A stretch of DNA of 64,000 bases from a virus (taxonomy: Duplodnaviria > Heunggongvirae > Uroviricota > Caudoviricetes), in IMG/VR virus record IMGVR_UViG_2563366825_000011, positions 1 to 64,000 of that record; one strand, written 5' to 3'. How positions within the stretch are numbered: the stretch's first letter is position 1; every line of letters starts with the position of its first letter. The notes under the pieces were generated by a model. The model had not been told where the DNA came from. It searched no databases and saw nothing but the letters and a program-made list of their open reading frames with translations. Position numbers and translations under genes: made by a program. Of this stretch, positions 54,172-62,556 are shown one piece after another.

Positions 54172-57100
54172 TTAATCCACTCCCACTTTTTTGTTGTACT
54201 CGCGGTTAAAGCGATCCACGGCAACCTTCATATCCCGCTCTACCGATTTCACCATCGCCGCCTGCTGCGCCAGACTGAGAGAACTGTCGGCATAAATGGC
54301 ATCGCGCTGTTTGCGCAAATCCTTCAGTCTCTTCCGGGTATCCTGCATAAGCCCGTTCATCAACAATTTTCCGTTGTTCTCGTCAATGAACGCCGTTCTT
54401 TCTGCACCGGTCAGACTCTTCAGCTCTGCGTGATACTGCGCAACCTCTGTCATCCGGTCGTACATCTTCTGCTGGTCTGCATACGGCATCACCTCACCCG
54501 AAATTTTCCCCAGGAAGGGCACCTGCTGCTCCGGTATATCAATACCGTTCAGCGATTTCACCGCCGCATCTGTGGTTTTGGAAATGAAGCGCCCTGTCCC
54601 TCCGGAGATATAGTCAATCCAGAATTTCAGCGATTCCGGTGTGATATCCACCGCGCCGGGACGATACTGGCTGCCACCTGAGAACGCATTCAGCCAGGAT
54701 GCAAACGCCTTGTACGCCTCAGGCGTTGAACGTCTGCCCAGTTGGCTGTCCGGTTTCGGTGTGCCAAATGGCATGTTCTCCTGGTAAATCTGCGCCCCCA
54801 TGAAGTTTTCATTCATGGCAAGGTTCGCAAACGGACGCAGAATGGTCGGCGCTGCATTTTTCAGCAATGCCCCGGACAGTGTTTCCGACGTTTCACTGCC
54901 CACAGGACTGAATGCCCCCAGGATACCACCGACAACATTACCGGCAGCACGTGAAGCAGTCAGGTCGCCCGCTGCCACACCTTCAGCAGTATGCCCGAGC
55001 AGGAAGAAAACGTTGTACCCGTAAGGCAGAGGAATACTCCAGTACTCTCCGGCCTTGCCCCCGAACACCGATTTCATAATGACGAGGTTACGCTCTTTCA
55101 CATGAGACGGCACCTTGTCATACCAGTTAACCCCGTCATCATCCTCCCCCGCAACACTGCGGTTAAGCGAGCCAAGCAGATAACCCGCTCCCACAGCTGC
55201 AAGCGCGATTTTCTGCGGTACATTGAGATTCTTCCAGCGAAGGCGCTCCGGTAACGGCCCGTCGCCATTAAGATGTCCGAGCGTTCTCACCAGGTTTGCG
55301 GTCCCCTGAATGCTGGCGTTGGCAAACATATACAGCGAGTTCATCAGCGCTCCCTGCTCACCACGACGGTTAAAGTTCACCGTCATGTTTTTGGCAAGAG
55401 ATGCCGCCTGCTGGCGTGACAAACCGGCATCACGGGCGTGTTTATAGGCAGAAAGACGCAGAGCGTTTTCAACCGCGCCGTTGGCATCCTCGACCAGGTT
55501 CAGGAACGAATGCCATGCACCGATACTCTGGCCTTTCCATCCGCCCTTCGCCAGCGACACAAGGCGATCCATTTCCTTCTGCTGGCCTTCAAGGTCACCC
55601 ATGTTAAACCAGCCGGTTTTACCTCCATCCTCAACAAACTCTTTCCACACCTTCTGCCACTGCGCACCGTTGCCCGTGAGGGTTTTACCACGCAGACTGG
55701 CGTATACGGCAGACATGGCAGACCGGCTGTCTTTCACCACAGCCAGGGCGGATAAGTTATCCAGCCCTTTCAGTTTACCGTCGCTCCTTCCCTGCTCAGC
55801 CTTCAGGTTCATCACCGCCGTCTGCACGTCACGGATGAAGTTACTGACCAGAAATTCCGGGTTATACGACGTGTTCACCGTTGCCAGGAAACGGTTAACT
55901 TTCCCCAGCGTACGGATTACGGCGTTACTGGTTTCCGGCCCCATGTTCTTCATCGCACGCATCAGGCGCGGGTCATGGAGTTTGATGTAGTAAGTTTTGC
56001 CGTCCTTTTTGGTGGTGAAGTAGCGATCCGCCATCATTGCCATAGGCACCGGACGTTCAACAACTTCGCGACGGGTTTCGCCGGTTTCCGGATCAACACG
56101 CTCTGCAATCGCCCGCATGGTGTCCGGTTTGTCATCAGTGAATACCTGCCAGTAATCCTTATCGGGATTATCCTGCACCAGTTTCAGGAAGGCGTTACCC
56201 ACTTCGTTTTTGCGATGGCGGATCAGCGATTCGCTCAAATCCTGTATCGCCTGAGTGGAAGGAGACTGTGCGCGGGATGCACGCCCCATGGCCTGCCTGC
56301 TTTCACGTCCGCCGATGGTGAAGCCCTTACCTGTACGGGGCAGTGACACCACACCGTCAACATCCTGACCTTTCAGGGGAACGTAGTAACGGTAGGCGTT
56401 CTGCCAGGCATCCACCACACCGCTCTCTTCCAGTCCGGCCTCACGGATAAGCTCACGGCGACGGGCCAGCATATCGTCAACAATCCCTGCCAGACGGTCA
56501 TACTGTGCCTGTTTGCCACTGTTACGCACACGCTGCATGATTTCCGCCGCTTCCGCGTTGGTCATCCCCGAACCGCCGTCCGGCATTTTCGGGTTGATTT
56601 TCGCGATATGCGCGTTACGTTCCGGCGCGTGACGGGCGTAGAGGTACTCATCCAGATCGGCCTGCGCAATTTTGTAGTCCGCCAGTAATTTAGCCAGTGG
56701 CTGAACGTAGCGCTCCTTCATCACGTTCAGGTCGTTTTCCGCCTTCCCGTGGAAGAGTTCTTCCGCCATATAAGCGTTGTTACTGTCGTCTATTTTTCCG
56801 CCAGTTTTACGGATGTTCTCCTGAACAGCTTTCAGCACCTGGAATTTATCCTGCATCTGGCGCACAAAACGCGATGCAATTGTCTCTTCCGGTGTCAGAC
56901 TGCTGGTACGGGAGTAATACGGCCCCTTGCGAATATCTTCAGGATAGAGTATTTTATCTACAGAGCCGCGATAAGAACGCTCCTCTTTGGGCAATTGAAG
57001 CCCACTGTACTGAGGGTTATCGCGGCTTAATTTTTCCTTCCGGTAAAGCGTCAAACCTGCTTTATCCAGGCTATTAGCTTTGTTCATCCCCCCTTTTGTT

Positions 57101-62556: not shown

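Follow-up and report, generated by a model that had tools for sequence, protein, structure and literature searches.

We analyzed a 64,000-nucleotide stretch of Caudoviricetes DNA (positions 1 to 64,000 of IMG/VR record IMGVR_UViG_2563366825_000011; hereafter the window), focusing on one very long gene near its end for which an initial annotation had described an uninterrupted 8.4-kb open reading frame (ORF). The ORF was confirmed at 54172..62556 on the minus strand; it is intact, begins with ATG and encodes 2794 amino acids (aa) plus a stop codon. The features within and around this giant gene are listed in Table 1. The motifs reported earlier were re-read from the DNA and found as HEWFH at aa 1284 (nt 58693-58707) and HEIIHH at aa 1551 (nt 57889-57906), a spacing of 267 residues where about 270 had been stated, and a (VP)5 linker was present as described at aa 880-889 (nt 59890-59919). 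The N-terminal region's Ala/Gly-rich character was likewise evident, Ala and Gly accounting for 25-32% of the residues across aa 101-500. From the local base composition the probability of reading 2794 codons without a stop is ~1e-55, and the composition of the protein predicts 0.041 HExxH motifs (P = 8e-4 for at least two). Therefore, neither the length of the ORF nor the pair of HExxH motifs is explained by chance.

The giant gene in its phage family

The initial annotation had been unable to place the protein in any characterised family and had regarded so long an ORF as highly unusual, and neither view held. The family phrog_616 aligned residues 1-2794 of the protein to positions 1-2793 of its 2793 positions, and tblastn against phage genomes identified colinear ORFs with 91.5-97.2% identity at 100% coverage. 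Carriers included vB_EcoP_24B (phi24B), 933W (L0134), Shiga toxin (Stx) 2 phage II, PA28, ArgO145, Shigella phage 75/02 and the non-Stx phage PhiR12_3. The PhiR12_3 orthologue was 97% identical, and those of the Stx phages Sp5, 933W and phi24B were 92-93% identical. Judged by these alignments, the giant gene is the orthologue of Sp5 ORF80 (ECs1242), 933W L0134 and phi24B vb_24B_48 (gp47). The long ORF is a hallmark of this phage group: its locus was found in 426 of 5426 complete E. coli genomes (about 8%), and an intact colinear ORF with a coverage of at least 80% was counted in 420 complete E. coli genomes and in 186 phage records.

The gene is encoded among phage late and virion genes. In a related genome and in PhiR12_3 the late block runs from an N4-gp56-family capsid gene through tail-fibre and tail-tip genes, lom and small genes to a gene for a 420-aa protein, directly after which the giant gene follows as the last large gene. 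The element belongs to a 933W-like short-tailed prophage, classed as Sepvirinae/Traversvirus from the taxonomy of phi24B, of which it forms the late end; in the window this end abuts ynfF. An alignment of four alleles indicated that the O157-type proteins are mostly 95-100% identical to the window protein outside the first ~200 residues, with 97-98% identity across the second metallopeptidase-like domain and the C-terminal module described below. Identity over aa 1-200 was 64-71%, and the VP-linker region was the most variable between alleles (61-65% identity).

Many long antisense ORFs occur on the plus strand inside the giant gene (54430-62547), for example 61789-62547 (252 aa) and 59485-60030 (181 aa). 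Antisense ORFs of this kind were annotated as genes in older phage records (vb_24B_50c-52c, and 'hypothetical protein x19' in Stx2 phage II) and are most likely artefacts of a stop-poor, GC-rich antisense strand.

Table 1. Positions of the giant gene, its domains and adjacent features in the window
Feature	Position (nt)	Strand	Basis
Giant polyvalent virion protein gene	54172..62556	-	ORF; phrog_616 end to end; tblastn 92-97% identity, 100% of query
N-terminal domain, aa 1-460, Ala/Gly-rich	61177..62556	-	HMMER, hydropathy
Low-complexity acidic Pro/Gln/Glu-rich linker, aa 461-902, including (VP)5	59851..61176	-	Composition, disorder proxy
LPD5 - zincin 1 - LPD1 module, aa 903-1450 (predicted)	58207..59850	-	Catalytic-type H1263, H1284-E1285-x-x-H1288, D1291, E1375/E1382
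Zincin 2, aa 1470-1700 (predicted)	57457..58149	-	R-H1551-E1552-I-I-H1555-H1556 plus E1607; 54-sequence alignment
MuF_C, aa 1750-1839	57040..57309	-	Pfam 1.2e-17 and 2.3e-19
C-terminal module, ~916 aa, aa 1879-2794	54175..56922	-	Pfam LPD38 covers only aa 2477-2682 (nt 54511-55128)
SocA/Panacea-domain gene, 174 aa	53497..54021	-	Pfam E = 2.5e-19
Upstream 420-aa gene	62642..63904	-	phrog_601; helix-rich; adjacency to giant gene
Terminator-like hairpin GCCCGAC-N6-GTCGGGC then T8	62577..62596	-	Between 420-aa gene and giant gene; consensus match only
Hairpin GCCCCG..CGGGGC, no T run	~54125-54160	-	Just past stop codon of giant gene

Domain architecture and cysteine avoidance

Pfam searches of the protein identified four domains above the curated cutoffs, LPD5 (aa 1051-1200), LPD1 (aa 1361-1440), MuF_C (aa 1750-1839) and LPD38 (aa 2477-2682), all of them families that were set up to describe the 'polyvalent proteins' of phages (Iyer et al. 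2017, PMC5512222). Polyvalent proteins carry two or more effector-type domains per chain, and here the four Pfam domains are accompanied by two putative zincin domains. The earlier statement that NTPase, tail-fibre and tape-measure signatures are lacking agreed with our searches: a Walker A pattern ([AG]xxxxGK[ST]) did not occur in the 2794 residues, no tail-fibre or tape-measure family was matched in Pfam, and no ATPase family was matched in Pfam or NCBIfam. Searches of Pfam and NCBIfam detected no methyltransferase or helicase domain, and Pfam gave neither a lysozyme or transglycosylase domain nor, at E <= 1, an RNA polymerase family. PADLOC returned no match for the giant protein and its immediate neighbours. 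Searches of the PDB with the whole protein sequence, or with a 71-sequence profile of the central region, returned nothing or only low-complexity noise.

The first HExxH motif falls between the LPD5 and LPD1 models. H1263, H1284, E1285, W1286, H1288, D1291, E1375 and E1382 were invariant among 20, and then 71, homologues of 33-57% identity, and the motif was kept in all 19 giant relatives that cover the region. Its form, HEWxH followed by Asp and a downstream Glu, matches a variant widespread in phage-type polyvalent proteins in which HExxH is followed three residues downstream by Asp and accompanied by a conserved His on strand 2 (PMC5512222). Domain 1 (aa ~1240-1440) has the attributes of a gluzincin-like zincin, with HExxH on a helix, a downstream Glu ligand on a second helix and an alpha/beta core, and its predicted model has a fold like those of MtfA and anthrax lethal factor. 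The probable third zinc ligand is thus on a helix covered by the LPD1 Pfam model.

Zincin 2 was matched by no Pfam model. In 54 domain sequences of giant relatives, E1552 and H1555 were present in every sequence, H1551 in 50 and E1607 in 52. A strict HExxH regular expression found that spacing in only 3 of 50 homologous domains and gave the first impression that motif 2 is not conserved. We rejected this impression, as the relatives have HExxxH spacing: they read R-H-E-x-x-x-H-H-G, and the lineage of the window is one residue shorter (RHEIIHH). An HExxxH peptidase variant has also been described (Iyer et al. 2017, PMC5512222), and zincin 2 reads as a polyvalent metallopeptidase of this type with one residue deleted in this lineage; RHEIIHH itself can be read as HExxH or, using H1556, as HExxxH. 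The second HExxH of the initial annotation is thus a conserved site of metal-binding type but seems really to be a shortened HExxxH. The model of the zincin 2 region (aa ~1480-1640) had a predicted local distance difference test (pLDDT) score of 78-93, the fold match not being resolved for it separately. A tandem duplication of the zincins was considered and rejected, since BLASTP of one against the other gave no similarity. Both HExx(x)H motifs sit at conserved, metal-binding-type positions; together with the lack of a tail-fibre or tape-measure match, this is the reverse of what a structural protein with incidental HExxH motifs would have given. The fold neighbours of the zincins were MtfA, anthrax lethal factor, Pro-Pro endopeptidases, SprT/Wss1 and minigluzincins, so that in their predicted structures they resemble protein-cleaving endopeptidases and not cell-wall peptidases of the LAS/M23/M15 types.

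MuF_C matched its model with 64-70 bits against a cutoff of 27.6; it is a PBECR RNase-like fold, not a metallopeptidase, and both active and inactive versions exist (Iyer 2017, PMC5512222). The N-terminal domain (N-domain) is hydrophobic in segments at aa 180-211, and its aa 405-432 resemble a glycine zipper, the Gly-zipper matches in Pfam being weak (E = 0.05). It seemed to be specific to enterobacteria in a word-indexed search; an exhaustive HMMER search identified 104 relatives which, short fragments aside, were always the N-termini of proteins of 1.5-5.5 thousand residues. The linker that follows (aa 461-902) gave no match in Pfam.

At the other end of the protein, the Pfam LPD38 model has 189 positions (~200 residues) as against a conserved unit of ~900 aa. 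Homologues of the whole C-terminal module (C-module) aligned over 97-100% of its length with 34-58% identity and always lay at the extreme C-terminus, behind N-terminal extensions of 0-672 aa that bear ADP-ribosyltransferase, methyltransferase, LPD3, LPD1 or MuF_C domains. The C-terminal 916 aa behave as a single unit. Polar motifs upstream of the Pfam LPD38 region were strongly conserved (NTSYNPEF..SNF.RD.QTA, VENA.RLSAY and LAKN.TVNFNR.GE). An AlphaFold2 model of the C-module (pLDDT 85.4, predicted template modelling score 0.83) consisted mostly of long helices with one beta-sandwich; compared with the PDB it had no informative counterpart, only generic helical-bundle matches. Among viral models in BFVD, 68 matched at E <= 0.001, the better ones over the whole length and mostly with TMq of 0.5-0.88, and some of the matches were fused to LT_GEWL, RelA/SpoT or methylase domains. 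The C-terminal part of an LPD38-bearing protein of E. coli phage PTXU04 also matched the C-module model structurally (rank 23). By tblastn the module was found in ~100 marine Vibrio phages (42% identity) and in Burkholderia and Ralstonia podophages (27%). A homologue was also observed in an archaeal virus, Methanosarcina virus MetMV (MK170447.1 40102-42492; 28% identity, 91% of query, E = 2e-80).

We then compared 66 giant proteins that carry the N-domain. In 33 of them the C-module was detected with its end 1-37 aa from the C-terminus, 32 of these 33 distances being no more than 13 aa. Zincin 2 was present in ~50, the LPD5-zincin 1-LPD1 module in ~20 and MuF_C in ~15. Where the C-module was detected along most of its length, zincin 2 lay directly upstream, with MuF_C between the two in the closest relatives. 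The cargo varied among relatives and included ADP-ribosyltransferase, methylase, LPD3, LT_GEWL and RelA/SpoT domains. These comparisons suggest a recurring 'bookend' layout of N-domain, variable cargo, zincin 2 and C-module. A stand-alone C-module in Amphritea was uninformative; it lies in a degraded prophage beside early genes.

The giant protein contains no cysteine, nor do the three sequenced alleles compared. Among the 194,028 residues of the 66 giant relatives 9 are Cys, and 59 of these proteins lack it altogether; the C-module set has 6 in 49,760 residues. Near-total avoidance of Cys is a property of the family, and it may come from selection acting on proteins that exit the virion in unfolded form and pass through an oxidising periplasm.

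Virion association, essentiality and proposed role

In Sp5 of O157 Sakai, nine late genes were newly recognised as essential, and ORF80 (2793 aa) is among them (Mondal 2016, PMC5155283). The ORF80 deletion mutant excised and packaged DNase-resistant DNA into normal-looking heads, and yielded zero plaques or lysogens; its particles failed to bind an antibody against the tail fibre, which is encoded by a separate gene (ORF67/ECs1228) (PMC5155283). A mutant of the upstream ORF79 (ECs1241) had the same phenotype, and the assays were done in MG1655 (PMC5155283). The authors noted a match of ORF80 to COG1483, an AAA+ ATPase, and suggested 'tail formation, possibly ATP-driven' (PMC5155283). We rejected this annotation because the protein has no Walker A motif and no ATPase family match. 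The initial annotation had placed the protein in an accessory element, where it would serve to counter host defences; the essentiality of the Sp5 orthologue for infectious, tail-fibre-bearing particles does not fit a merely accessory effector.

In phi24B, gp47 (2811 aa with the authors' start) was found by mass spectrometry in purified virions, and LPD5, LPD1, LPD38 and MuF-C were noted in it (2026 preprint, 10.64898/2026.04.10.717836). It was absent from every cryo-electron microscopy map, including the resolved tail and portal structure, and was proposed to be an encapsidated ejection protein (10.64898/2026.04.10.717836). In the supplementary proteome gp47 reached 10,962 spectral counts, a number exceeded only by that of the capsid protein (17,998), and its counts peaked in the first gel slices listed (10.64898/2026.04.10.717836). 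Since the peaks of the 649-aa spike, the ~45-kDa capsid protein and a 35-kDa esterase fragment follow one another in this order, we take the slices to be listed by decreasing molecular weight; on that reading, most of the packaged gp47 is full length or in very large forms. The preprint's label of 'MuF-C metallopeptidase' was rejected, as MuF_C is a PBECR RNase-like domain and the putative peptidases lie elsewhere in the giant protein. Related proteins have been placed in virions as well: in the Bcep22-like phage JC1 the 4515-aa 'DarB-like' gp69, whose closest homologue is Bcep22 gp75, and a 510-aa protein encoded just before it are both virion-associated (PMC9144972). The LPD38-bearing 2198-aa protein of PTXU04 was critical for infection by CRISPRi-ART knock-down (10.1101/2023.09.18.558157). 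The earlier proposal of an injected polyvalent protein with zincin peptidases therefore stands as regards its polyvalent domains and, from the phi24B proteomics, its virion association, and injection is probable.

The 420-aa gene directly upstream was assigned, from its position beside the giant gene, as the orthologue of Sp5 ORF79/ECs1241 and phi24B vb_24B_47. Its product, like the giant protein, has no Cys. The 420-aa protein and the N-domain were each found in 291 phage records with a near-identical breakdown by organism (Stx-type and Vibrio phages), the C-module being found in 356; in Vibrio phage D79 a 420-aa homologue directly precedes a 3066-aa giant gene. The 421-aa orthologue of phi24B had 1,634 spectral counts, a level similar to the 2,267 for the lateral spike, and was labelled 'Transcription factor?'; the text of the preprint dismisses 'transcription regulation factors' as contaminants (10.64898/2026.04.10.717836) and seems to count this protein among them. 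We consider it a genuine internal virion protein because of the Sp5 ORF79 genetics, and the 420-aa protein is probably a virion-internal, conserved partner of the giant protein. The upstream helical, coiled-coil gene had indeed been proposed as a virion-associated partner, and the essentiality of ORF79, the proteome counts and the co-occurrence across 291 records all agree with this. A glycine-zipper ('bacteriocin') gene further upstream is cut by the end of the window and is complete in related loci only.

The 420-aa protein is 73-79% identical to its O157-type alleles. Its gene and the first ~200 codons of the giant gene form one contiguous divergent block (61957-63904), which points to either linked recombination or co-evolving partners.

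Taking the structure of the gene, its domain content, the conservation of its metal-binding residues, the virion association and the essentiality of the orthologue as established here or in the literature, we consider it likely that the giant protein is an essential, encapsidated and ejected polyvalent protein of a 933W/Sp5/phi24B-type prophage. It would be made late and packed in the capsid, essentially full length, with the 420-aa protein, and its presence would be required for DNA-filled heads to become tailed, infectious particles. At infection it would leave by way of the tail in a largely unfolded state, either before the DNA or together with it; the long disordered linkers and the lack of cysteine fit an unfolded exit. 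Ejection is an inference, as are a conduit role, the cleavage of proteins and what is cleaved, and what the end modules do. We hold a division of labour between the ends and the middle with less confidence: the N-domain and the ~900-aa C-module would provide an obligatory packaging and envelope-crossing function, and the middle would be exchangeable enzymatic cargo, here the LPD5/LPD1-embedded zincin and the RNase-like MuF_C (PBECR). Zincin 2, which lies between cargo and C-module and is conserved in the family, would be the best candidate for a self-processing or cargo-releasing protease. Only tentatively do we suggest a modular delivery device, common to a broad class of podophages, in which the end modules replace T7-type core or P22-type ejection proteins, the middle is a swappable cargo bay and zincin 2 frees the cargo after ejection.

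Several points weigh against an ejected polyvalent protein. The ejection role put forward for phi24B gp47 comes from a preprint and was deduced from absent density. The ORF80 mutant of Sp5 loses tail-fibre labelling, whereas P22 and T7 ejection-protein mutants make tailed but dead particles, and on this phenotype a role in tail assembly is inseparable from one in ejection. The function proposed for the C-module comes from conservation and context, its PDB matches being generic helical bundles, and only half of the giants with an N-domain show a C-module by profile; the others may be fragments or more divergent.

The Sp5 phenotype also has to be set against other explanations. The giant protein could be an accessory DarB-like antirestriction effector that is injected and has no structural or DNA-delivery role, in which case the essentiality seen in Sp5 would reflect restriction in the K-12 indicator strain. 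MG1655 carries EcoKI, which could account for the apparent essentiality. The label 'DarB-like antirestriction' does attach to the PHROG family matching aa 2355-2682, the relatives in Burkholderia and Ralstonia phages are annotated DarB-like, and polyvalent proteins have been predicted to be counter-defence weapons (PMC5512222). We nevertheless regard this explanation as unlikely, since loss of tail-fibre antibody binding is a morphogenetic defect, the giant protein lacks methyltransferase, helicase and Walker A, the 'DarB-like' match is confined to a C-module that is conserved whatever the cargo, and the PTXU04 LPD38 protein is required for efficient infection. P1 DarB, for its part, is dispensable on non-restricting hosts. 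The morphogenetic defect could instead mark a factor for tail assembly or structure that remains in the particle, or is active in morphogenesis only, and does not enter the cell; heads that are filled with DNA but lack tail-fibre labelling, and the COG1483 AAA+ match noted by the authors, would suit such a factor. With no Walker A and no ATPase family in Pfam or NCBIfam, and with a protein that is plentiful in purified virions but not seen where tail and portal are resolved, this is improbable, and the family-wide lack of Cys, the long disordered linkers and the effector-type domains would be unexpected for an assembly chaperone.

The phi24B preprint states the hypothesis that the metallopeptidase domains digest peptidoglycan so that the ejected conduit reaches the inner membrane. 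Lytic transglycosylase domains in some relatives make the breaching of the wall plausible for this class of protein, but the preprint places the peptidase in 'MuF-C', an RNase-like PBECR fold, the zincins resemble protein endopeptidases and not LAS/M23/M15 types in their models, and the giant protein carries no lysozyme or transglycosylase domain; we think this very unlikely to be their function. Only the unusual length of the gene, and a copy of an insertion sequence (IS) ~750 bp from its stop, would speak for an assembly or fusion artefact or for a decaying pseudogene in a defective prophage. That explanation can be put aside almost completely: it is refuted by the intact colinear ORFs counted above in complete genomes and phage records and by the detection of the orthologue as a protein, and it disagrees with the negligible chance of such an ORF and with the conserved catalytic residues.

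An ejected polyvalent protein can also be set beside known systems. Sp5 ORF80, 933W L0134 and phi24B gp47 share with the window gene full-length colinearity, a position at the end of the late region after the 420-aa gene, the same four Pfam domains and the lack of Cys. The O157-type alleles differ in the first ~200 aa (64-71%), the VP linker (63-65%) and the 420-aa protein (73-79%), and in the window, unlike in O157-type Stx phages, the gene is followed by a Panacea gene, an IS and an IbrA/IbrB-like pair. The polyvalent proteins of Iyer 2017 (PMC5512222) are alike in combining several effector-type domains in one chain, in their virion-gene context and in having the zincin as a hub domain, and both peptidase variants, MuF_C/PBECR and the phage-only LPD38 are covered there. 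That study treats the LPDs as separate domains of unknown function, whereas we describe a ~900-aa C-terminal unit and a recurring N-domain, with fixed ends and a variable middle.

The giants of Bcep22 (gp75), JC1 (gp69), BcepIL02 and Ralstonia (GP4-like) phages carry the C-module at ~27% identity over 85-87%, and are the last gene of the morphogenesis block, preceded by a gene for a ~500-aa virion protein; JC1 gp69 is virion-associated by mass spectrometry, and the portal, capsid and head-closure proteins of JC1 are homologous to those of 933W. They differ in size (4.5 thousand residues) and in a cargo of lytic transglycosylase, helicase and methylase, and neither the N-domain nor the 420-aa partner was detected in these phages by tblastn. 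P1 DarB, a very large capsid-packaged protein delivered with the DNA, is the conceptual model of the class. It has N6-adenine methyltransferase and helicase (P-loop) domains that were not found in the giant protein and serves in antirestriction as an accessory factor, while the orthologue in Sp5 is essential, and the PHROG 'DarB-like' match involves only the C-module. The N4 virion RNA polymerase is likewise giant, encapsidated, ejected, equipped with a zincin peptidase domain and packaged unprocessed, but its RNA polymerase module was not detected by Pfam in the giant protein. T7 gp14/15/16 and P22 gp7/16/20 are alike in the proposed role, being internal virion proteins released at infection that bridge the envelope (PMC8402733). 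PDB searches found no sequence or fold similarity to them, and here a single 2794-aa chain with a 420-aa partner stands in place of three proteins, and the Sp5 mutant loses tail-fibre labelling. The C-terminal part of PTXU04_00025 follows the C-module model along its length (TMq 0.65, 16% identity) and this protein is critical for infection; it is a 2198-aa protein of an unrelated phage with no other annotated domains.

The gene, its family, its essentiality and its virion location were already in the literature and Pfam, and our analysis is in this respect a re-discovery of a known family. It adds the bookend layout, the avoidance of Cys, the co-divergence of the 420-aa protein with the N-terminus and the standing of the Panacea gene as an add-on. 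The giant gene makes up ~14% of the genome of phages that spread Shiga toxin and is essential for infectious particles, yet the 900-aa C-module has no solved structure and the domains no demonstrated activity. Knowledge of its packing, ejection and possible self-cleavage would show how a widespread podophage lineage, which spans Stx phages, Bcep22-like, GP4-like and marine Vibrio phages and even a Methanosarcina virus, gets its DNA across the envelope. It could suggest a way to block the transfer of Stx phages, or a natural chassis for delivering protein cargo into bacteria. The value that remains lies in the mechanism and in the regularities of the family, namely the bookends, Cys avoidance, partner co-variation and the large C-terminal fold.

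Neighbouring genes and other features of the window

The Panacea-domain gene that the initial annotation had placed immediately downstream of the giant gene was present, but an operon partnership was not supported. The gene is absent from O157-type copies, whose matches begin after it, and it lies in DNA of lower GC content beyond a hairpin from the stop of the giant gene. It is a variable add-on at the prophage end, outside the conserved unit. On the other side of the giant gene, the terminator-like hairpin is followed by a GGAG ribosome-binding site and then by the ATG; terminator-like sites in the region were no more numerous than in shuffled sequences. Late-operon antitermination would need to read through this hairpin (62577-62596).

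Two identical, inverted IS copies of 1316 bp, each with a 402-aa Mutator-family transposase, are present in the window. The copy at 24375-25690 (-) is inside a lambda-like prophage, and the copy at 52109-53424 (+) is between an IbrB-like gene and the Panacea gene, ~75 bp beyond the latter and ~750 bp from the stop of the giant gene. Next to this second copy, 50230-52085 (+) encodes a PAPS-reductase/DUF3440 protein (408 aa, with weak PADLOC matches to BrxP and DndC) and the IbrB-like ParB_N protein (214 aa). The pair lies at the end of the prophage and is oriented convergently with the late operon; it may have been added as a DNA-modification or anti-defence function. At the truncated ynfG-side junction (48870-50033, +) a 94-aa fragment with an AntA domain precedes a full antirepressor-like gene of 263 aa (AntA/P22_AR_C). 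The lambda-like prophage is separate from the element of the giant gene and occupies the first ~38 kb of the window, adjacent to rspAB/ynfA-F; its structural block is on the minus strand with a high GC content (54-60%), and it carries a Cys-free ORF of 849 aa (1077-3626) that may encode the tape-measure protein.

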